Positions 1,140 through 61,163 of a stretch of DNA of 64,000 nucleotides are shown here, piece after piece. This DNA comes from Bacillota bacterium (GTDB lineage: Bacteria; Bacillota; UBA994), in contig WSXW01000008.1 in the NCBI GenBank assembly GCA_009773495.1, forward strand, positions 64,050-128,049, read 5' to 3'. The position numbers were made by a program, and so were the translations under genes. Below the pieces are notes generated by a model. That model was given only the letters and a program-made list of their open reading frames with translations. It made no database searches and was not told where the DNA came from. Numbering within the stretch: the stretch's first letter is position 1; each line of letters begins with the position of its first letter.

Positions 1140-2069
1140 GTGGCGATAGCAGTGAAACCAGAGCTTAAACCCAGGCACAAAGGACTGACACTGCGTCAAC
1201 AAAACAACCTATGGGCGTATGCCTTCATTGCTGTGCCCGTTATCTACTTCTTTTTAGTCCGGGTATGGCCCACTTTATCTTCATTTAACGTCAGCTTGCG
1301 CAGCTGGAACATCGTCTCTACCAATCGCCCCTTTGTAGGGCTAGACAACTATAAGCAGATGTATGCTGACCCCATATTCCGTAAAGCTTTGTATAACACA
1401 CTGCGATATGTCCTAATCGGTGTGCCAGCACAAATGGTTATAGCCCTAGGCATAGCGCTCTTGATCCAGCGCGTAGTCAAGTTTGCCGGGGTATTTAGAA
1501 CAGCCTATTTTATACCCTTTATTACCTCAGCTGTCGCCGTCAGCTGGGTATGGCGATTTATGTTTATGCGCCACTCCGGCTTGATTAATGGTATACTGCT
1601 TAAACTCGGATTCCCTCAGCAAGGCTTTCTCAACGACCCCCAACAGGCCCTGTGGGTTATTGCCGCCTCGATCATTTGGCAAGGGCTCGGTTTTCAGATT
1701 GTTATCTTCCTCGCAGGGTTATTGACCATCCCCCAGATGTATTATGAAGCTGCACAAATTGATGGGGCCAGCGAATGGCAGATCTTTAAGAACATTACCA
1801 TCCCCCTGCTTAACCCCACCATTGTCTTTTCATCTGTATTGGCGACCATCCGTTTCTTGCAGACCTTTACCCAGATAGTTAACATGAGCAGCCAAGGTCG
1901 CGGTGGGCCCCTCAACAGTACCTTGAGCGTGGTGCTGCATATCTATCAGACCGCCTTTGAGCGCTTTAATATGGGCTATGCCTCGGCCATGACCGTAGTG
2001 CTCTTCCTGATTATTATGGCCATAACTATCTTTCAGCTTAAAGTGCTGACTAAGAAATTTGAGTATTAG
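1140..2069 (+). CDS. carbohydrate ABC transporter permease (MalF/UgpA-like)
   Basis: 309 aa multi-TM protein with an EAA-loop-like region (AAQIDGASEWQIFKNITIPLL). It follows the SBP. Confidence 0.85.
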   Translation: MAIAVKPELKPRHKGLTLRQQNNLWAYAFIAVPVIYFFLVRVWPTLSSFNVSLRSWNIVSTNRPFVGLDNYKQMYADPIFRKALYNTLRYVLIGVPAQMVIALGIALLIQRVVKFAGVFRTAYFIPFITSAVAVSWVWRFMFMRHSGLINGILLKLGFPQQGFLNDPQQALWVIAASIIWQGLGFQIVIFLAGLLTIPQMYYEAAQIDGASEWQIFKNITIPLLNPTIVFSSVLATIRFLQTFTQIVNMSSQGRGGPLNSTLSVVLHIYQTAFERFNMGYASAMTVVLFLIIMAITIFQLKVLTKKFEY

Positions 2070-2910
2070 GGGGGTAGAGATGAACGAGAGCATCTCCAGA
2101 CGCAAGATTGTCCAGGCTGTAATCTACGCCCTCTTGATCATAGGGTCGATAGTAATGCTGTTCCCATTTGTATGGATGTTATCTACTTCGTTTAAGCTCC
2201 CATCCGAGGTTTACGATCTCAATATTGTGCCAAAGACCTTTACCCTTGACAATTACCGCACCGTACTTACCAGCAACATGTTTGGCCGCTGGTTCGTTAA
2301 TAGTCTCTTGATTGCAGTTATCAGCACCGTCACTACAGTCTTTTTTGCCTCCATGGTCGGATACGCCTTCGCCAAGAAGAAATTCCCCGGCCAGAACTTC
2401 TTCTTCCTAATGATCTTGAGTTCTCTCATGGTGCCGGTAGAAATGCTGATTATTCCCTGGTACATCACAGCTGTAAAGTACGGCTGGACAGACAGCTACT
2501 GGGGCATTATGTTCCCCGGGCTGATCACGGCCTTTGGCGTGTTCTTAATGAAGCAATTTATGGAGGGCGTGCCTACAGATATGCTCGATGCCGCCCGTAT
2601 CGATGGTATGAGCGAGCTTGGCATCTGGTGGCACATCGCCATGCCGCAGGTGCGCTCAGCTCTAGCGGCACTCGGCATCTTCACCTTTTTGGGCACGTGG
2701 AATGCCTTTCTCTGGCCAGTGATAATTATAGACAGCCCGCATATGCGTACGCTGCCGGTAGGCATCTCGCTCTTTGCTACGGAGAATGCCGCCAACTGGC
2801 ACCTCTCTATGACGGCAGCGGCGATTGCCTTAATCCCCGTGCTGGTCGTCTTTGCTATCTTCCAGAAGCACATTATCGAGGGTATAACCATTACGGGGAT
2901 GAAGGGGTAG
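2059..2910 (+). CDS. carbohydrate ABC transporter permease (MalG/UgpE-like)
   Basis: 283 aa with 6 predicted TM segments and an ARIDGMSELGIWWHIAMP EAA motif. Its start overlaps the stop of the upstream permease. Confidence 0.85.
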   Translation: MSIRGVEMNESISRRKIVQAVIYALLIIGSIVMLFPFVWMLSTSFKLPSEVYDLNIVPKTFTLDNYRTVLTSNMFGRWFVNSLLIAVISTVTTVFFASMVGYAFAKKKFPGQNFFFLMILSSLMVPVEMLIIPWYITAVKYGWTDSYWGIMFPGLITAFGVFLMKQFMEGVPTDMLDAARIDGMSELGIWWHIAMPQVRSALAALGIFTFLGTWNAFLWPVIIIDSPHMRTLPVGISLFATENAANWHLSMTAAAIALIPVLVVFAIFQKHIIEGITITGMKG

Positions 2911-3095
2911 TATTGTTGCTACTACCTACCAAAACGGCATAGGCATTGCCGGTGCAATTATCATGTTTCTGGTATCCTTCAACCCCTTCATAAAATTCAG
3001 TCCCTTCTGTTACCCGACAGCCAGCCTGCGAAAAGGGTGGCGATAGGGCGTGTCAACAAGAAGAATTAGCATCTTTTTTTGAAACGACTAAAGAT

Positions 3096-3973
3096 GTGAA
3101 AAGAATTTTACAAAACTTAACGATGGTGAACGGCTCGCCAATTTTACCGGAAAAAACTTTAATTATATTTGATGAAATACAGGAGTGCAACAAGGCGCTC
3201 AATACACTAAAGTATTTCTGCGAGAAGGCACCGGAATATCATCTAGCTTGCGCAGGTTTGCTTTTAGGGATTGCCCTGTCTAAGCCCTCATCATTTCCTG
3301 TAGGTAAAGTTGACTTTATTACTATCAATCCAATGAGCTTTACTGAATTTTTAATTGCCAATGGTGATGAGAATTTAGTGGACTATCTGAAAAGTATTGA
3401 TGTAATTGAACTAGTGCAGTAAAAGATGGCGCAAGGGCAAGGGAGTATGAAGATGCTGTTACCTGGCTGTGCAATGCCGGTATGGCCTATAAGATATATA
3501 GAAGTACAAAACCCGGACTACCCATGTCTGCTTATGATGATTTGACAGCTTTCAAATTATATGCCGTGGATACTGGATTGTTACGTAGATTGGCGCATCT
3601 TGATCCTATTGCTTTTAATGAAGGTATCCGTCTGTTTACTGAATTTAAAAGTGCATTGGCCGAAAACTTTATATTACAAGGTTTAGCGGACAAATATGAA
3701 GCAATACCGAGATATTGGACATCGGGAGGGCAGGCGGAAGTCGACTTTATCATCCAACGCGGTAATGATATTATCCCAATCGAAGTAAAAGCTGAGCAAA
3801 ATATTAATAGTAGAAGTCTCACGTTATATAGACAAAAATATCAAGCTGAAACAAAAATACGCTTAAGGTTTTCACTTAGGAATCTGAAACAAGACGGAAA
3901 CTTATTAAATATCCCGCTTTTCATGATCGATTATGTAGATAAGCTTATAGAGCTGGGATTAAAAAATAGCTGA
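3096..3973 (+). pseudogene. AAA-ATPase/DUF4143 family gene, 5'-truncated and frameshifted (two ORF pieces 3096-3422 and 3482-3973)
   Basis: LIIFDEIQ (Walker B-like) is present but there is no Walker A. The region 3422-3482 reads as DUF4143 in a third frame. The C-terminal piece matches the end of the intact paralog at 54427-55890. Local GC is about 35% against about 50% in the flanks. Confidence 0.6.
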
Positions 3974-39686: not shown

Positions 39687-40082
39687 ATGAAAGCAATGAT
39701 TAGACTGCGCATAAGTTTGCACGAGGCCCACTATGGGGGAGGCCTTGTGGATGGGGCCAGAATCTTAGCCCTGTTCGGCGATGTGGCTACCGAGCTGCTG
39801 ATCCGTCACGACGGCGACGAAGGCCTCTTTGTCGCCTACGATATGGTAGAGTTTAAGGCCCCGACCTTCGCCGGCGATTATATCGAAGTCCACGGGGAGA
39901 TCACCAAAGTAGGGAATACCTCGCGGAAAATGGAGTTTGCGGCGTACAAGGTGATTAGGGCGCTTAACGACCCCGAGAATCCCTCCGCAGCGGAAGTCCT
40001 GGATGAGCCGATGCTGGTGTGTAGGGCGAGTGGGACGTGTGTGGTTCCGGCTGCGAAGCAGCGAATTAAACATGAATCATGA
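39687..40082 (+). CDS. kal: hotdog-fold protein, candidate 3-aminobutyryl-CoA ammonia-lyase (Kal)
   Basis: 131 aa hotdog-fold protein directly upstream of kce, the usual partner in lysine-fermentation clusters. RBS gggagg. Confidence 0.5.
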
Positions 40083-40091
40083 AACATGACC
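40068..40091 (+). repeat. left inverted repeat of IVS-like cassette 1 (aaacatgaatcatgaaacatgacc)
   Basis: 23/24 match to the reverse complement of 40516-40539. Overlaps the last codons of kal. Confidence 0.65.
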
Positions 40092-40127
40092 TTCACGGGG
40101 GAGTGGGTGCCCCATGCATACTCGAGC

Positions 40128-40497
40128 ATGCCACTTGTGAGGCAGGCCCACAAACGCGCTAGCAGTCTATAAGTCTTCACTAAACTTCCCTAGGGAAGAG
40201 TTATATGGCATTACCAGTCAGCTTAGGCGTGCTGTTGTATCTGTGCCTACGAACATCTGCGAAGGTAAGGGCCATCGGAACGACCGCGAGCTGCATCGCT
40301 ACCTTGGTATCGCAAGGGCGTCTTTATCTGAAGTAGTCTATCTAATGTTCTTAGCACAGGATTTAGGTTTTTTGCCGGAAGACCAATATAGATGCCTTTT
40401 TACGCAAGCAGATGAGATTAGCAGGATGATAGTGGGTCTACAGGGCTACATCAGGAAAAATGTTGCTAGACGCAAAGGCTCTGCCAAAGCTCCCTAG
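40128..40497 (+). pseudogene. four-helix-bundle protein (Avd / 23S rRNA intervening-sequence protein family, PF05635-like), frameshifted
   Basis: ELYGITSQLRRAVVSVPTNICEGKGH...ASLSEV core in one frame; MPLVRQAHKRASSL N-terminus in another frame, with a stop at 40138. Confidence 0.6.
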
Positions 40498-40515
40498 GCG
40501 GGTCTTAGGGCTTTT

Positions 40516-40539
40516 GGTCATGTTTCACGATTCATGTTT
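40516..40539 (+). repeat. right inverted repeat of IVS-like cassette 1
   Basis: ggtcatgtttcacgattcatgttt is the reverse-complement match of 40068-40091. Confidence 0.65.
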
Positions 40540-40565
40540 CATGATTACTAAAGGGAGGTGCCCCC

Positions 40566-41381
40566 ATGTCCAAACTCATCATAACCGCCGCACTCGTTGG
40601 TGCAGAGGTTACGCGTGAGCAGACGCCTTATATTCCGTTAACGCCCGCAGAGATTGCCGACGCAGCGTTCGACTGCTACCAAGCTGGCGCAAGTATCGTA
40701 CATATTCATGTGCGGGATAAAGATGGAAAAGCAACACAAGACAAGGCCGTTTTTGCAGAGACTATTAGGCTCATTAAAGAGAAGTGCGATATTATCGTGC
40801 AGATATCTACCGGTGGGGCTGTAACCGCAAGGATAGAGGAGAGGATTGCGCCTATAGGTCTTAAGCCTGAAATGGCCACCCTCAGCACCGGAACGGTTAA
40901 CTTCGGGGCAGATATTTTCCTTAACACCCAAGAGTATATGGAGAAGATTGCCCGGGCCATACAAGAGAACGGTGTAAAGGCTGAGGTAGAGGTCTTTGAA
41001 GTGGGAATGATACAGAATGCTCTCAATCTAGTTAAGAAGGGCTTACTGTCTGAGCCGGTCCACTTTGACTTTGTGATGGGCGTGCCGGGGGCCTTACCTG
41101 GTACACCAAAGAACTTGATGCATTTAATCGAGAGTATCCCCCAGAATGCTACGTGGACGGTGGCTGGTATAGGCCGGGCTGAGCTGCCCTTGGCAGTGAT
41201 GTCCATTGTCCTTGGCGGCCACGTGCGGGTGGGGTTTGAGGATAACATTTTCTACTCACGCGGAGTTCTAGCTAAGAGCAATGCGGAATTGGTAGCTCGC
41301 ATTGTGCGGATAGCAAAGGAGTGCGGCCGCGAGGTCGCCACCCCCAACGAAACCCGCAGAATGCTTGGGATAAAGCAGTAA
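40566..41381 (+). CDS. kce: 3-keto-5-aminohexanoate cleavage enzyme (BKACE/DUF849 family)
   Basis: 271 aa. The N-terminus MSKLIITAALVGAEVTREQTPYIPLTPAEIA is typical of Kce. RBS gggagg. Confidence 0.75.
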   Translation: MSKLIITAALVGAEVTREQTPYIPLTPAEIADAAFDCYQAGASIVHIHVRDKDGKATQDKAVFAETIRLIKEKCDIIVQISTGGAVTARIEERIAPIGLKPEMATLSTGTVNFGADIFLNTQEYMEKIARAIQENGVKAEVEVFEVGMIQNALNLVKKGLLSEPVHFDFVMGVPGALPGTPKNLMHLIESIPQNATWTVAGIGRAELPLAVMSIVLGGHVRVGFEDNIFYSRGVLAKSNAELVARIVRIAKECGREVATPNETRRMLGIKQ

Positions 41382-44238: not shown

Positions 44239-44367
44239 GGCGCTACCATTAGGTTGGCTTTCACTTACTTTTGCGTAGCCTTACAAGGAATGCGCTCCTT
44301 AACATAGAATAGGTAATAGCTAGACATGCCATGATATTTCTAGAGTTGTCAGAAGGGAGATGGAATA

Positions 44368-45036
44368 GTGAAGGGTAAAATAAGGATAGCACAGGAAGCT
44401 CTCGCCGGACTCAAAGACGGAATGACTGTTATGATCGGTGGGTTCTTGGGGGTAGGTGCGCCAGAGGGGCTAGTGACAGAGGTGTTGGAGAAGGGCACTA
44501 CGGATCTCACCGTAATCGGAAATGATACTGGCTTCCCGGATAAGGGTATCGGCCGTTTAATCGTCGCCAAGAAGATTAAAAAGGTCATTGCCTCGCACGT
44601 CGGCACTAACCCCGAGACGGGGCGGCAGATGAATGCTGGGGAGACAGAGGTAGTCTTGGCACCACAGGGTACGTTGGCGGAGCAGGTTCGCGCTGCTGGT
44701 GCCGGCCTTGGGGGGATACTCACGCCAACCGGCGTAGGCACAGTAATAGAAGAGGGAAAACAGAAGATTACTGTAGACGGTAAGGAATACTTACTAGAAC
44801 TACCTATACATGCGGACTATGCACTTATTAGGGCTTATAAGGCTGACGAAAAAGGCAACCTGGTATATCGCCGTTCCGCACGCAATTTTAACCCTCTTAT
44901 GGCTATGGCCGCTAAGGTAGTTGTGGCTGAGGTGGAGCAAATTGTAGCGGTAGGAGAGATAGATCCTGACGAAGTCGTAACCCCAGGGCTTTTTGTGACC
45001 TACCTCGTGAAAAAGGGGGGCTCTGGCTGTGAGTAA
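44368..45036 (+). CDS. 3-oxoacid CoA-transferase subunit A (AtoD/ScoA-like)
   Basis: 222 aa family-I CoA-transferase alpha subunit with typical glycine-rich N-terminal region. Confidence 0.8.
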
Positions 45037-45688
45037 GGATATTAAGCGCGAGCGCATCGCCAGGCGCGTGGCCATGGAGCTAAGCGATGGCATGGTCGTC
45101 AACCTCGGTATTGGTATACCGACCTTTGTGGCTAATTTTGTGCCTGAGGGTATCGATGTAATGTTCCAGTCGGAGAACGGTTTTGTGGGCTTAGGCCCGG
45201 CCCCGAGCCCGGATAACATTGACCCAGATATCACTAACGCCGGAGCCCAACCGGTAACCATACTCCCGGGCGGAGCCTGTTTTGACTCCGCTACTTCGTT
45301 TGCAATTATCCGCGGTGGGCACGTGGATTTAACGGTATTAGGGGCACTAGAGGTAGACGAAAAGGGTAACCTCGCTAACTGGATGGTGCCAGGCAAGATT
45401 GTCCCAGGTATGGGCGGAGCAATGGATTTGACCGTAGGAGCCAAGCGGGTAATCATTGCTATGGAACACACTGCTAAAGGTAACCCTAAAATCCTGCCGT
45501 TGTGCACGCTGCCCCTCACAGCGAAGGAGCAAGTGGATCTGATTGTTACGGATATGGCGGTGATTGAGGTGATTCCGGCGGGATTGGTCTTGAAAGAGAT
45601 TGCTCCGGATACCACGGTGGAAGAGGTTGTCGCTGCCACAGCTGCGAAGCTGATAGTGTCGGCTCATGTAGCTGTCATGGCTGTTTAG
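45029..45688 (+). CDS. 3-oxoacid CoA-transferase subunit B (AtoA/ScoB-like)
   Basis: 219 aa beta subunit with the catalytic-Glu region motif ENG ([11 protein letters not shown]). Overlaps the subunit A stop. Confidence 0.8.
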
Positions 45689-45755: not shown

Positions 45756-46400
45756 ATGAAATTCTTCTTAGACACTGCTAACGTCGACGAGATCCGCAAA
45801 GCAGTAAAGCTCGGCGTTATAGCCGGCGTTACCACCAACCCCACCCTCATAGCCAAGGAGGGCAAGGAGTTTCATCCTACCGTAAAGGAAATCTGCGCCA
45901 CCACACCCGGACCTGTGAGCGCAGAAGCGATCAGCCTAGACGTGGAGGGCCTGCTGCGCGAAGCCCGCGAGCTAGCCGCGCTTGCTCCTAATGTTGTCGT
46001 TAAAATACCCATGACCGAAGCTGGGCTCGAAGCTGTTGCTACCCTCACTAAAGAAGGCATTAAGACCAACGTGACTTTAATTTTCTCTGCCAACCAAGCC
46101 CTCCTCGCTGCCCGCGCTGGCGCTAGCTACGTATCTCCCTTTGTCGGGCGCTTAGACGATATCTCCAGCCCCGGCATGAAGGTAGTCGAAGACATTGCTG
46201 ATATCTTCGCCATCCACGACCTCCCTACTGAGATAATTGCCGCCTCCATCCGCCACCCACAACACGTGCACGAAGCAGCCCTCGCTGGCGCGCATATCGC
46301 TACGGTGCCGTACAAGGTAGTGCAGCAGATGATAAGTCATCCGTTGACGACGAGTGGGATAGAGAGATTTATGGATGATTGGAAGAAAGTGAGTAAGTAG
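45756..46400 (+). CDS. tal: fructose-6-phosphate aldolase / short transaldolase family protein
   Basis: [16 protein letters not shown]...VTTNPTL with Schiff-base Lys context (VVVKIP). RBS gaggagg. The ORF track starts at 45711. Confidence 0.8.
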
Positions 46401-46406
46401 ACTTTA

Positions 46407-46428
46407 GTTCTCAGTTCTCAGTGCCCAG
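46407..46428 (+). repeat. left inverted repeat of IVS-like cassette 2 (gttctcagttctcagtgcccag)
   Basis: 19/22 match to the reverse complement of 46851-46873. Contains an internal tandem agttctc repeat. Confidence 0.6.
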
Positions 46429-46447
46429 AAAAGGGGTGTGATCTCAT

Positions 46448-46801
46448 ATGCCCAAAGGATTTGTGCAGTTGAAGGTGTGGCAGCAGGTCAGGATAATGGC
46501 TAAGGAAGTATATAACTTGACAGAACAGTTCCCCAATAGGGAACAGTACTCTTTGGCATAGCAGATGCGTAGAGCCGCTGTATCAGTGATGTCAAACATC
46601 GCTGAAGGGCAAGGTAGGTTTACACGGAAGGACTTCCGCCACTTTCTTTTTATGTCCCGAGGTTCTCTACTGGAGTTGCACAGTTGTCTTATTCTTTCTA
46701 TCGACTTGGGTTATCTTGACCGAGACCCTGTATTCGCTTGTTACAAACACTGCAACCAGATTGGGCGTATGCTAAACGGCCTTATTGCATCATTAGTATA
46801 G
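46448..46801 (+). pseudogene. four-helix-bundle protein (Avd / 23S rRNA IVS protein family) interrupted by in-frame TAG at 46559-46561
   Basis: MPKGFVQLKVWQQV...EQYSLA*QMRRAAVSVMSNIAEGQGR...GSLLEL. The stop replaces the conserved Ser of the ...G L T/S S Q... motif. Confidence 0.6.
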
Positions 46802-46850
46802 AACGAAAGACGGGGATGCAGCAGAAGCCTAGGACTACGAGTGCTGGGAT

Positions 46851-46873
46851 CCGAGCACCGAGAACTGAGAACC
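46851..46873 (+). repeat. right inverted repeat of IVS-like cassette 2
   Basis: ccgagcaccgagaactgagaacc. Preceded by a small palindrome gtgctgggatccgagcac. Confidence 0.6.
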
Positions 46874-46894
46874 AACCAGATAAGGGGTGAGATT

Positions 46895-47863
46895 ATGGAA
46901 AGAGAATTGGCTTTAGAGTTTGTGAGAGTAACGGAAGCCGCCGCCATCGCCTCCGGCCGCCTGATGGGTCGGGGGCAGAAGGAAGCGGCAGATGCCGCTG
47001 CGGTTGACGCCATGCGGGCGATGTTGGATACGGTGCAAATTAAGGGTACCGTTGTTATTGGCGAAGGGGAGATGGATGAGGCCCCGATGCTCTATATTGG
47101 TGAGCGCGTGGGTGGAGCAGATTTTCCGGAGGTAGACATTGCGGTTGACCCGCTAGAAGGTACTAGTCTTGTAGCCAAAGGATTGCCCAATGCCATCGCT
47201 GTATTGGCAGTGGCAGAAAAGGGGGGGCTACTACACGCACCCGATATGTATATGGATAAAATAGCTGTAGGTCCTGAGGCCAGGGGTTGTATTGATTTCG
47301 ACGCCCCGATTAAAGACAACTTGGCGCGTGTAGCGCGGGCTAAGGGGCGCCGTATTGAGGACCTGACGGTGGTAATTTTAGACCGCGACCGCCACGCCAG
47401 AATCATCCGTGAAGTACGGGAAGCCGGTGCGCGCATTAAACTTATCACCGATGGTGATGTGGCACCTGCTGTGGCTACTGCCTTTGGCGAGAGCGGTGTT
47501 GATATGCTGCTCGGCATTGGCGGTGCGCCGGAGGGTGTGCTGGCAGCAGCTGCGCTCAAATGCCTAGGCGGCGAAATGCAGGCCAGGTTAGTACCAGGTT
47601 CGCCTCTGGAGGCAGAACGCGCCCTAGCTATGGGCTTAAAGGATATAGGCTTAGTGCTTACCCTCAACGATTTGGTAAGTAGTAACGACGTTATTTTCGC
47701 TGCCACAGGTATTACTGATGGAGATCTCCTGCGTGGAGTGCGCTACTTTGGCGGAAAAGCCTCAACCCATTCCATTGTCATGCGCAGCAAAACCGGCACC
47801 ATCCGCCTCGTCGAAGCCACGCATATGCTCGATAGGAAGACGTTTGTAAAGCGGGGGTGCTAG
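46895..47863 (+). CDS. glpX: fructose-1,6-bisphosphatase class II
   Basis: [41 protein letters not shown] is the canonical GlpX N-terminus. RBS aaggggtg. The ORF track starts upstream at a GTG at 46841. Confidence 0.85.
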
Positions 47864-48543: not shown

Positions 48544-48700
48544 GCCCGATTGTAGGGGCATCATGCGCCCGATTGTAGGGGCACAACATGTTGTGCCCGC
48601 CAGGCGTTGTAGGGTTGCGCCCAGGGCACGATGCCGTGCCCCTACACCAAACCCCGATTGTAGGGGCACAACATGTTGTGCCCTGGGTCGAACTCCCACC
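48544..48700 (+). repeat. array of palindromic repeat elements (unit about CCCGATTGTAGGGGCACAACATGTTGTGCCC; 2 full + 1 truncated + degenerate/inverted partial copies)
   Basis: Copies at 48544-48560, 48567-48598 and 48652-48690. The perfect 20-bp palindrome gggcacaacatgttgtgccc occurs twice. An inverted partial copy gtgcccctacaccaa lies at about 48635. Confidence 0.75.
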
Positions 48701-48719
48701 CCTAGAGAGAGGGATTATA

Positions 48720-49396
48720 TGCGTAGTATTCACGTGGTGGAGGATGAGCAAAACGTACGCGAGCTTTTGGGCCGTTACCTTGAGCACGAGGGCTACAAGG
48801 TCTATTTGCATGCCAGCGGCGAAGGCGTGCTTGAAGCCTTGCAGGTCAATGGTGCTGACTTAATAGTCTTAGATATTATGCTGCCGGGTATTGATGGCCT
48901 AGAGCTATGCAAACGCATCCGGGCCAAATACGAGACGCCGATTATTTTTGTTTCTGCTCGCAGCGAGGAATTTGACCGAATCCTAGGGATTGAGCTGGGC
49001 GGCGATGATTACTTGGTCAAACCCTTTAGCCCCCGCGAGCTCTTGGCGCGCATACGGGCTATCTTTCGCCGCGTAGACCAACAGCAGTCAGTGGCGGTGA
49101 GCGGGCTCAAACCCTTTAAGGATCTCACTATTGATTCAGCCGCAAGGCTAGTGCGCTGTGGACAGTATACTCTAGATTTCACAAACAAAGAGTTTGAACT
49201 CCTGCTCTACCTGATAGATAATGTCGGCCGCGCTTTTACACGTGAGCAAATGGTTACTGCGGTGTGGGGCTATGCCTATGTAGGCGATAGCCGTTCGGTA
49301 GATGATCTAATTCGCCGCATCCGCAAGAAATTAGACGGCGTATCGACTATCGAGATTAAGACTGTATGGGGCTATGGGTATCGGATTGATGGGTGA
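48720..49396 (+). CDS. OmpR-family response regulator (receiver + winged-helix)
   Basis: MRSIHVVEDEQNVRELL...LDIMLPGIDGLELC...winged-helix C-terminus. RBS gagagaggg. The ORF track extension from 48563 reads through the repeats. Confidence 0.85.
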
Positions 49397-57473: not shown

Positions 57474-57749
57474 AGAATCGTTCCTCCTTTTTTTGCTCCT
57501 AAGTAATCATATTATAATAAGCGCCCTACAATATCCTACAGAAAAATACTAAAAAATACTTTATAATTCAGAATATTATGTCATAGTGAGTGATAGAACA
57601 AATGAGCACATAGCACATGGCGCATGGAACATAGTGTGCGGGGCGCTCTTAGAAAGCGGCAAGCGGAAGGCGGAAAGCGCTAACGGCTGACGGCCACTCT
57701 ACAAGAGACAAGGGACAAGCGACAAAATCCCACTCAATTCAAATCTTAC

Positions 57750-59083: not shown

Positions 59084-60148
59084 ATGCTTGAAAAATTAAG
59101 ATTAATTAAAAACCGTTACGAGCTGCTTACAGATCTCGTCAGTGACCCTAACGTAATTGCCAGACAAAACGAATGGCGTGCTTACATTAAAGAGCAGGCC
59201 AGCTTAACTACCCTTGTTAATGCTTTTAACAGGTACGAGAAGACTCTGCAGGAGCATGAACAGTCTAAGCAGGCCCTATCGGGGCAGAATGACCCCGATT
59301 ATAGGGAGATGCTAGAGCTTGAGGTAGATGAACTGGAAGAACAAATCGAGAAGATAGAAGAAGAGATAAAGGTTCTGCTGCTCCCCAAAGATCCTAAAGA
59401 CGACAAGAACGTGATCTTAGAAGTGCGTGCCGGCACAGGCGGCAACGAAGCCGCTTTGTTTGCTGCGGATTTATTCCGCATGTACACCCGTTACGCGGAG
59501 CGCCAAGGTTGGAAGACCGAGGTTATGTCCGCATCACCTAGCGACTTGGGTGGCTATAGAGAAGTAATCTTTATGGTTGAGGGCAAGGGCGCCTATAGCA
59601 AGCTAAAGTTTGAGAGTGGCGCTCACCGCGTGCAACGCGTTCCGCTGACTGAAGCTAGCGGGCGTATTCATACTTCTACCGCCACTGTGGCGGTTCTGCC
59701 CGAAGCCGAAGAGGTAGACATCGAGATCGATCAAAATGACCTCCGTATCGATACTTTCTGCTCCAGTGGCCCAGGTGGGCAGTCTGTAAATACAACTTAC
59801 TCCGCTGTACGTCTGACACACATACCCTCGGGTGTAGTGGTGAATATGCAGGATGAAAAGTCGCAGATAAAGAATCGTGAGAAGGCCATGCGCGTACTCC
59901 GTGCTAGGCTGTTCGACTTGGAGCAAGCCAAGCGCGATGCCGAGATGTCCGAAAACCGCCGCGGACAAGTGGGTACTGGTGATCGCAGTGAGCGTATTCG
60001 TACTTTTAATTTTTCGCAGAGTCGTGTATCGGATCATCGCATTAGCTTTACTACTCACCGATTAGAGGCGATTCTTGACGGTGACCTCAACGAACTTATT
60101 GATGCTCTGACGACTGCTGACCAGATGGATAAACTGCAACGGGCGTGA
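59084..60148 (+). CDS. prfA: peptide chain release factor 1
   Basis: PxT-region and GGQ motif ([11 protein letters not shown]). 354 aa. Confidence 0.9.
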
Positions 60149-60227
60149 TATGCATTATTTGGGGAGATACGTTCCTTGTTCCTCGTAACGAAGAGCTAGG
60201 AACGAGGAGCTAGGAACGAGGTTTACC

Positions 60228-61163
60228 ATGTCCCTTCATTCTTTATGGCAGTGGGGTACTGCGGAGCTTGCAGCTGCGGGCCTTGAGGACTCCCGGTGGC
60301 AAGCAGAGCTACTCCTGCGGGGTATTGTCGAGGTGACTCGGGCTAAGTTTATGACCTACCCGGAGTTACAAGTAACGCATCTCGACACTGAGCGCTTTCG
60401 GGACGCAATCCGTAGGCGCTCTTTAGGTATGCCCGTGCAGTATATCCTTGGCAAGCAGGAGTTTTATGGGCGGGAGTTTATAGTGACCCCCGATGTATTA
60501 ATCCCCAGACCTGAGACGGAGGTGCTGGTGGAGGAAGTGTTGAGTAAGATGTTGCCTTTGTGTAGGGGCACGACACTGTCGTGCCCCTACACAAAGGCAA
60601 GCGGTTCTCAGTTTCCAGATCGCTTACGCCTCCTCGACCTGTGCACAGGTTCTGGTTGCATCGGTCTAACCCTGGCTGCAGAACTACCGCAGGCTAGGGT
60701 GGTGGCGACGGATATTTCGCTGCAGGCGTTAGGGGTAGCTAAACAGAATGCACATAAAGTAGGTGTGGCCAACCGGGTGGAGTTTAAGCAAGGGGACTTG
60801 TGCTCTGCTCTACAAGGTGACATTTTTGATGTTATAGTCTCTAATCCGCCGTATATCGAAACGGCTGCTATACCTACACTAAGTAGGGATGTCCAGAATG
60901 AACCTATTGGAGCCTTAGACGGCGGGGCAGATGGGTTAGAGTTTTATAGGCGTATTGCAGATGGGCTCGGGCAACACCTGGCCCCTGGGGGTCTCGTGGC
61001 GGTAGAAATCGGCCACGGACAGGGCCAAGATGTAATGCAGTTATTCGCCCAGGCTGGGCTTATCGACATAACCCTAATCCTCGACCTAGCAGGCAAAGAA
61101 CGCGTCGTGATGGGGAAAATGCCGAAGGCAGAAGGAGCTTGTACTTTCCCCGTATCAGTGTAA
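60228..61163 (+). CDS. prmC: release factor glutamine N5-methyltransferase PrmC/HemK, with in-frame palindromic-element insertion in the inter-domain linker
   Basis: NPPY motif (VSNPPYIE) and SAM motif LDLCTGSGCIG. The linker is about 17 aa longer than in typical orthologs. Confidence 0.85.
   Translation: MSLHSLWQWGTAELAAAGLEDSRWQAELLLRGIVEVTRAKFMTYPELQVTHLDTERFRDAIRRRSLGMPVQYILGKQEFYGREFIVTPDVLIPRPETEVLVEEVLSKMLPLCRGTTLSCPYTKASGSQFPDRLRLLDLCTGSGCIGLTLAAELPQARVVATDISLQALGVAKQNAHKVGVANRVEFKQGDLCSALQGDIFDVIVSNPPYIETAAIPTLSRDVQNEPIGALDGGADGLEFYRRIADGLGQHLAPGGLVAVEIGHGQGQDVMQLFAQAGLIDITLILDLAGKERVVMGKMPKAEGACTFPVSV
60555..60597 (+). repeat. perfect 43-bp palindrome (two 21-nt arms around a central C) of the TGTAGGGGCAC...GTGCCCCTACA family, in-frame inside prmC
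   Basis: cctttgtgtaggggcacgaca-c-tgtcgtgcccctacacaaagg encodes ...LPLCRGTTLSCPYTKA... Related copies occur at 48544-48700. Confidence 0.8.

Follow-up and report, generated by a model that had tools for sequence, protein, structure and literature searches.

A PF05635 gene between inverted heptamer arrays in the tal-glpX spacer of an uncultured Bacillota bacterium, a probable intervening-sequence-type element

The window analysed here is a 64,000-nucleotide stretch of contig WSXW01000008.1 (assembly GCA_009773495.1, Bacillota bacterium), and the subject of this report is a small PF05635 gene that lies within it between tal and glpX, enclosed by an inverted repeat; coordinates are window positions, and the features of this locus are all on the + strand. 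The upstream host gene tal (transaldolase / fructose-6-phosphate aldolase; 45756-46400; PF00923, E 1.3e-62) ends in a TAG stop at 46398-46400, and the left arm of the repeat (46404-46429), a run of tandem heptamers (GTTCTCA GTTCTCA GTGCCCA), begins 3 nt on. Next come the Shine-Dalgarno context CCAGAAAAGGGGTGTGAT of the enclosed gene (46425-46442) and the gene itself (46448-46801), a four-helix-bundle open reading frame (ORF) of 117 codons belonging to PF05635/TIGR02436 and interrupted in this strain by an in-frame TAG at codon 38 (46559-46561). The right arm (46850-46875), which carries the heptamer complement (…GCACCGAGAACTGAGAAC), is followed by the Shine-Dalgarno context CCAGATAAGGGGTGAGAT of glpX (46876-46893) and, 19 nt past the arm, by the ATG of this downstream host gene (class II fructose-1,6-bisphosphatase; 46895-47863; PF03320, E 1.4e-146). 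The original prediction had proposed the same order of inverted repeat, ribosome-binding site (RBS) with ATG, gene, second repeat and host RBS, and this order was confirmed for the PF05635 cassette, hereafter cassette 2, which with its arms occupies most of the 494-nt spacer. Its GC content is 45-48%, against 54-55% in the flanking genes. No convincing terminator was found between tal and glpX, and a terminator-like hairpin lies upstream of tal. Rfam gave 0 matches across the whole 64-kb window, and the PADLOC anti-phage defence models gave no match.

The ORF matches PF05635 with an E value of 2.5e-37 (127.8 bits against a cut-off of 33.8, over residues 7-111 of 117) and TIGR02436 with 118.9 bits (cut-off 24). 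Its nearest solved structure is XCC0516 of Xanthomonas (PDB 2gsc_A, E 7.3e-18), which has five chains. The gene had been labelled a member of the Avd family, that is, of the accessory proteins of diversity-generating retroelements (DGRs), and we consider it hardly credible that it is one. The resemblance to Avd is that of a distantly related four-helix-bundle fold family: there is weak similarity to phrog_3206 ('Avd protein of DGR', E 7.9e-12), but the scores against bAvd PF22296 (30.5 bits, cut-off 40) and NF033474 (36 bits, cut-off 80) both fall short. Moreover, no reverse-transcriptase family occurs among the annotated genes of the near-identical assembly L085, which covers window positions 39.6-56.9 kb apart from 44364-45643, and no direct repeats of at least 40 nt that could serve as a template/variable repeat pair were found within 36-57 kb. 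On these grounds the DGR assignment was rejected at this locus.

The earlier statement that inverted repeats flank the gene was borne out, with two amendments. The arms are 26 nt long rather than 22 bp, at the positions given above, with 85% complementarity in the repeat search and a core of 17/18, and they are built from heptamers, a trait that had been overlooked. Tandem Repeats Finder reports a period of 7 at 46406-46422 (AGTTCTC x2.4). When the arms alone were joined via a short loop they folded with -29.9 kcal/mol (z -5.2), and none of 200 shuffled sequences folded as well; their inverted-repeat score is 32, compared with a mean of 16 and a maximum of 30 for 328 ordinary genes scored in the same way. 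In the whole-cassette folds, both minimum free energy and centroid, the arms close the structure, and this holds for cassette 2 as well as for a second cassette of the window, cassette 1, described below. A local palindrome (GTGCTGGGATCCGAGCAC, 46841-46858), consisting of degenerate inner heptamers of the right array, offers a second pairing register that is shifted by 7 nt.

Two diverged loci, L083 and L084, carry an orthologous cassette in the same tal-glpX spacer, with 85% and 73% amino acid identity to the ORF of the window. Both arms are built of GTTCTCA units in the window, of GTTCCCA units in L083 and of GTGCCCA units in L084, and the arms-only folds of L083 (-51.2 kcal/mol, z -9.8) and L084 (-63.4 kcal/mol, z -13.3) are stronger than that of the window. 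Counted by hand from the sequences, 26/30 arm positions are complementary in L083 and 29/30 in L084, where the UAG stop itself is base-paired in the fold. The orthologs of cassette 1 changed their unit likewise, from AATCATG to AATCATT on both arms. RNAalifold, given four sequences of which one was truncated, chose an inner register shifted by one heptamer, and its covariation counts were not used. Arm complementarity is thus maintained while the unit changes on both sides together, either by selection on the helix or by conversion between the arms; the arms still pair although synonymous divergence in the neighbouring genes has reached saturation. At their C-termini the L083 (253-696) and L084 (3001-3390) proteins share a conserved tail, ERKTG(M/L)xxKP. 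The L083 ORF extends through the right arm as far as a TGA located within the Shine-Dalgarno sequence of glpX. Owing to a 1-nt deletion, the tail is in another frame in the window lineage and follows the TAG at 46799-46801 (region 46796-46890).

The history of the insertion can be read from a comparison of tal-glpX spacers. In all 80 species with a glpX at 62-78% identity, a PF05635 gene was absent from the fetched locus; in 23 of them, all Bacillota, tal lies directly upstream of glpX with a spacer of 10-387 nt and no cassette, so the sequence is not the ancestral conserved spacer that, together with a lack of flanking repeats in other family members, would have undone the original prediction. 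If positions 46404-46875 are removed from the window, a 22-nt spacer is left that retains the Shine-Dalgarno sequence and resembles the shortest natural spacers. The insertion is lineage-specific and has been passed on vertically at this site. Between the window and L083 the ratio of nonsynonymous to synonymous divergence (dN/dS) of the ORF is 0.08, at a dS of about 1.1, next to 0.04 for glpX and 0.11 for tal. At such a depth, this low ratio shows long-standing purifying selection on the protein, whose knockout in the window is recent.

That knockout is the in-frame TAG, which was found where the original prediction had placed it (46559-46561). We compared contigs of several independent assemblies, each carrying the glpX protein of the window and sharing 99.7-99.9% identity with it. 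Codon 38 is CAG in five of them (L001, L002, L085, L166 and L169, all with GCT CAG), while the window, L167 and L168 have the TAG allele (GCA TAG), which is accompanied by a T-to-A change in the neighbouring position 46558 and, at 46835, by a linked C. CAG is likewise the codon of the diverged orthologs L083 and L084, and the domain ORF is intact in these two as in the five near-identical assemblies. The stop had been said to replace a conserved serine; the ancestral codon in this lineage is in fact CAG, for glutamine, and in the family alignment the column holds serine in just 18/37 sequences. Of the two options offered earlier, a very recent nonsense mutation and a read-through site, the former is the one that the alleles bear out: since five near-identical assemblies and the diverged orthologs read CAG, the TAG is a recent knockout allele, and since it occurs in three assemblies it is no sequencing error. 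It is a real CAG to TAG nonsense allele that segregates in one sub-population of about 99.8% identical genomes.

We consider it very improbable that this codon is decoded, as pyrrolysine, by an amber suppressor or by programmed read-through, with a full-length protein still being made. Pyrrolysine is used by some members of the Peptococcaceae, to which (or to the Bacillota at large) the sources of these assemblies assign the lineage, and the presence of the allele in three assemblies speaks for its being genuine. Against decoding stand the CAG codons just listed, as the stop is not conserved in the orthologs, and the use of TAG as an ordinary terminator by 14/57 window ORFs, tal, glpX and cassette 2 among them. 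No tRNA genes were found in the 64-kb window, and the sister cassette 1 of the same genome is likewise a pseudogene. Read-through and pyrrolysine were accordingly rejected on the allele data and the stop-codon usage.

The compared assemblies, 99.8% identical as they are, differ in structure. Two CoA-transferase genes (window 44364-45643) are missing from L085, and 54 nt at 48599-48652, at the 5' end of ORF 48563-49396, are present in the window and not in L001, L002 or L085. The product of this ORF is a response regulator according to the gene calls of L085 and L001.

The similarity between the two Shine-Dalgarno contexts, which the original prediction had noted and had proposed to look for in other family members as RBS mimicry, is real at cassette 2 and does not extend to the family. 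The 18-nt direct repeat (46425-46442 and 46876-46893) matches at 16/18 positions, with one copy inside the left arm and the other outside the right arm. It scores 26, the maximum among 325 RBS-versus-RBS pairs of the window being 19 (window p 0.005), and a search allowing up to 2 mismatches gave no further occurrence of the pattern in the window. Beyond the window it is present in L083 and absent from L084 and 52 other loci, so it is a lineage-specific event that lies outside the general mechanism. Cassette 1 shares an 8-nt word (GGTGCCCC) with a score of 16, within the background range, and the stretch is coding sequence in intact orthologs; this resemblance is therefore probably due to chance, and RBS mimicry at cassette 1 was dropped.

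Cassette 1 (about 40068-40546), also on the + strand, has a 4HBT thioesterase gene on its upstream side and a BKACE gene on its downstream side, and it is 38% identical to cassette 2 in tblastn. Its left arm (40068-40091; heptamers AAACATG AATCATG AAACATG) overlaps the TGA stop of the thioesterase gene (40080-40082), and its right arm (40516-40546; TCATGTT / TCACGAT) is separated by 19 nt from the start of the BKACE gene at 40566. The arms alone fold with -31.8 kcal/mol (z -7.3). The original prediction of two cassettes with unrelated inverted repeats is upheld by these AAACATG-type arms as against the GTTCTCA-type arms of cassette 2. Between them is a PF05635 pseudogene (40114-40497) in which no frame is open through the domain. 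Intact orthologs with 51-73% identity occupy the same 4HBT/BKACE spacer in L175-L178, and alignment to these places a 2-nt gap and premature stops in the window copy, which is identical in L085; an earlier candidate lesion, a TGA in place of an invariant Trp, was abandoned after this alignment. Cassette 1 is thus an element of the same type in which decay has gone further. In its family the heptamer AATCATG provides a stop codon to the 4HBT gene upstream and a start codon to the cassette ORF (L175 2001-2004; L176 569-576; window 40080-40087), in L175 as an ATGA overlap, and translation of a conserved N-terminal extension, GE(L/W)VP.AY..MPLV, appears to begin inside the left arm.

Further heptamer elements were noted. 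L084 has a second cassette (120-545) of a third, distinct type, 37-43% identical to the two of the window and flanked by CTTGTCG / CTTGTCC arms; it lies between the BKACE gene and a CoA-transferase gene, and the equivalent spacer of the window is without a cassette. At 60170-60218 the window holds a hairpin of GTTCCT[T/C] heptamers (17-nt arms, 88% complementary, -31.2 kcal/mol, z -4.5) in the 79-nt spacer of the co-directional ORFs 59084-60148 and 60228-61163; it encloses no ORF and may be an ORF-less heptamer-stem element. Solo arrays occur at 57605-57725 (AGCACAT x4; GAAAGCG / GCAAGCG x4; ACAAGAG / ACAAGGG / ACAAGCG x3.6), upstream of an rpmE-like start (GTG 57814), and the ACAAGGG / ACAAGCG unit among them corresponds to that in the arms of the second L084 cassette.

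To place these cassettes in their family, 80 metagenomic loci with relatives at 42-52% identity, all of one subfamily, were fetched, and 75 of them were scored for the best inverted repeat between the 150 nt upstream and the 150 nt downstream of the ORF. A score of at least 26 was reached by 51/75 PF05635 loci and by 4/328 control genes, and one of at least 34 by 43/75 loci and by none of the 328 controls, whose maximum was 30. The period is seven here as well: the strongest autocorrelation falls at lag 7 in 47/51 arms, and 48/51 left-arm consensus units contain AGT, followed by T/G/A, G/C/T, C/T and mostly C. The arms have a median length of 30 nt, about 4-5 units, and they fit closely between the neighbouring genes. 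For co-directional hosts, the median distance from the host stop to the left arm is 1.5 nt and that from the right arm to the host start 6.5 nt; the ORF runs in the direction of both its neighbours in 17 loci and against both in 5. The same arms were seen in 3/5 relatives on 'viral' contigs. Of five short words conserved in 23S rRNA, none occurred in any of the loci examined for them, the 80 metagenomic ones included. In non-rRNA contexts the norm for PF05635 is an order that runs from the host stop through (AGTNNNN)n, the ORF and (NNNNACT)n to the host start. The original prediction had argued from its two cassettes for a mechanism rather than coincidence and had suggested that other family members be searched for flanking repeats; such arrays, found in 51/75 members from unrelated metagenomes as opposed to 4/328 controls, support that view.

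The survey yielded several observations on individual loci. In L024 (about 1600-3500, Clostridiaceae bacterium BRH_c20a) inverted AGGTTA hexamer arrays flank tal and, separately, glpX, and these are the two top-scoring 'control' genes. The right CTGAGAA arrays of L109 (1770-1912), and also of L118, L120, L145 and L149, have at least 15 copies and the left ones about 4, and these unequal arrays are evidence of slippage-driven change in arm length. L093, L114, L121, L122, L138 and L144 share a conserved leader of about 75 nt, AAAACCGAACAT…GGTCACAG…CTGGAGG, from left arm to start codon; in this group the downstream neighbour is on the opposite strand, and the cassettes may have a promoter or regulatory leader of their own. 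One junction, upstream of a gene beginning MQITEIYKS (QueE-like by eye), is occupied in L094, L098, L103, L156 and L086, and another, upstream of a gene beginning MKLGLIAG (LpxI-like by eye), in L129, L139, L146, L161 and L162, with arm units drifting in both cases. This occupation of identical junctions by related lineages suggests that cassettes have persisted there by vertical descent over long periods.

The nearest known counterpart of cassette 2 is the S23p intervening sequence (IVS) of 23S rRNA in Coxiella burnetii and Leptospira (PMC4990558). In C. burnetii the IVS measures 428-444 nt and has a 28-bp terminal stem; its 5' region carries tandem GACAGAT heptamers whose copy number varies by strain, RNase III has been shown experimentally to cleave at the start of the first repeat, and the S23p ORF is decaying (PMC4990558). 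Cassette 2 is alike in size (both fall within about 430-470 nt), in its sense-oriented PF05635 ORF, in complementary termini that form a closing helix of about 20-30 bp, in tandem heptamers in the 5' arm, in the strain-wise decay of the ORF and in a patchy, lineage-specific distribution. It differs in location, the S23p IVS being situated in helix 25 or 45 of 23S rRNA and cassette 2 between tal and glpX, in a window where Rfam recognizes no RNA. It differs further in its strong Shine-Dalgarno sequences and in an ORF clearly under purifying selection, and excision by RNase III, established for Coxiella, is a prediction for cassette 2.

Our interpretation is that the segment from about 46404 to 46875 is probably an IVS-type element that is looped out of, or cut from, the tal-glpX transcript of an uncultured Peptococcaceae-like Bacillota bacterium; we infer the RNA step, be it loop-out or cutting, by analogy with the rRNA elements. 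The cassette would be co-transcribed with tal and glpX, and its arms would pair in the transcript. In the case of loop-out, the tal stop and the glpX initiation region would be brought together at the base of the helix, and the terminating ribosome would melt the outer helix and so expose the downstream start. In the case of excision, the arm helix might serve as an RNase III substrate and the insert be cut out as in the 23S rRNA of Coxiella. Arms made of tandem repeats would make the stem tolerant of register shifts and would allow it to regrow quickly by slippage. The locus is an old resident of the IVS type, its gene just knocked out in one sub-population.

Several findings weigh against this interpretation. 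The mismatches in the arms have no RNA-strand bias, since 32 are G:U-compatible on the sense strand and 37 are A:C; lacking a G:U excess, selection on sense-strand RNA pairing is not visible, and a DNA-level process such as gene conversion, hairpin DNA or a repeat-binding protein would fit the mismatch counts equally well. The counts neither prove nor exclude a role of RNA. The stem of the window, which has 13+4 bp and contains an A·C mismatch, is the weakest of the three orthologs and shorter than usual for canonical cleavage by RNase III. A bare stem of double-stranded RNA leaves the near-invariant AGT unexplained. Finally, strong purifying selection on the ORF implies that the protein matters, and an RNA-only view of the Coxiella type is therefore incomplete here.

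The same mismatch counts lend themselves to an explanation that we regard as unlikely, namely that cassette 2 is a mobile element at the DNA level, whose arms, as terminal inverted repeats or as a hairpin or cruciform of DNA, are acted on by a recombinase in trans, and whose arm complementarity reflects recent transposition or gene conversion instead of RNA structure. The patchy, lineage-specific distribution, the lower GC content of the cassette and the presence of several unrelated cassettes in neighbouring spacers are all compatible with it. However, no target-site duplications were found, shared words outside the arms being at chance level in 52 loci (3.29 versus 3.14 ± 0.10 expected). The cassettes differ in arm sequence, which makes a single sequence-specific transposase unlikely, and cassettes 1 and 2 (AAACATG and GTTCTCA) do not share the terminal sequence by which copies of a transposon with terminal inverted repeats, or of a miniature inverted-repeat transposable element, are recognized. 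The precomputed Pfam annotation of L085 holds no transposase over the part of the window that it covers. Old vertical residents, with a dS of about 1.1 or more, keep 26-29/30 complementary arm positions, which argues for ongoing maintenance and against recent insertion, and the ORF tends to share the orientation of the host operon (17 versus 5).

The invariant AGT speaks for a further proposal, a possible though still doubtful one, in which the heptamer arrays are binding sites, on RNA or DNA, for the pentameric four-helix-bundle protein of the cassette itself, with about one unit per subunit. The functional unit would then be the complex of protein and array, and not the helix, and it might serve to maintain or mobilise the element or to control the genes next to it; this is compatible with an IVS-type element. 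The related retroelement protein Avd is a nucleic-acid-binding pentamer. The solved relative 2gsc, with its five chains, has been described as a homopentamer (PMC4990558). The remaining features that favour the proposal are the constancy of AGT in 48/51 left-arm units where the other four positions are free to vary, a median arm of about 4-5 units, and purifying selection on the ORF alongside the arms. On the other hand, binding is predicted here from sequence patterns, and AGT may simply be inherited within the one subfamily sampled. The units are different in more distant cassettes (AATCATG for cassette 1, CTTGTCG for the second cassette of L084, GACAGAT for Coxiella), and in the window the arms persist though both ORFs are broken.

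Two published observations invite comparison. PF05635/TIGR02436 genes have been reported as 'associated' with cas operons, for instance between cmr3 and cmr2 (PMC3936711). These operon-scattered genes belong to the same family and likewise stand between co-directional genes of unrelated function; there, however, the gene is seen as a possible partner of its neighbours, and inverted arrays and stop-to-start placement went undescribed in the literature that we searched. In Beggiatoaceae, intergenic TAACTGA arrays of period 7, the complement of the AGTTATC unit, mostly end a few nt upstream of start codons (PMC4679880), as do right arms. They differ from the cassettes in being mostly solo direct arrays with no enclosed ORF, where the cassettes have two inverted arrays around a PF05635 gene, and by this analogy they look like solo right arms. 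In cyanobacteria, the short tandemly repeated repetitive sequences (STRR) are also intergenic tandem heptamer repeats. The literature searched, which left out most subscription journals, contained no description of the inverted heptamer architecture outside rRNA.

The general architecture is more interesting than the present locus itself. As a tentative generalization, with the odds against it, PF05635 cassettes would be widespread 'intercistronic intervening sequences' that sit at exact host stop/start junctions or at the tips of rRNA helices, are self-neutralised by inverted (AGTNNNN)n arrays, and are maintained or spread by a pentameric protein that reads the heptamers. If this is true, they constitute a class so far undescribed, orphan arrays such as the cyanobacterial STRR and the TAACTGA arrays of Beggiatoaceae are solo arms, and the 'association' of PF05635 with CRISPR-Cas and other operons is spurious. 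Cassettes that insert into operons of any function yield false partners when function is assigned by guilt by association, and the reported link to cas genes (PMC3936711) would be an example, being the pattern expected from an operon-inserting element. How 23S rRNA IVSs and their conserved ORF function and spread has been a standing question since the early 1990s, and PF05635 is still termed functionally uncharacterised. With an architecture found in ordinary operons, co-evolving arms and an ORF under selection, the problem becomes approachable by simple reporter constructs instead of rRNA.

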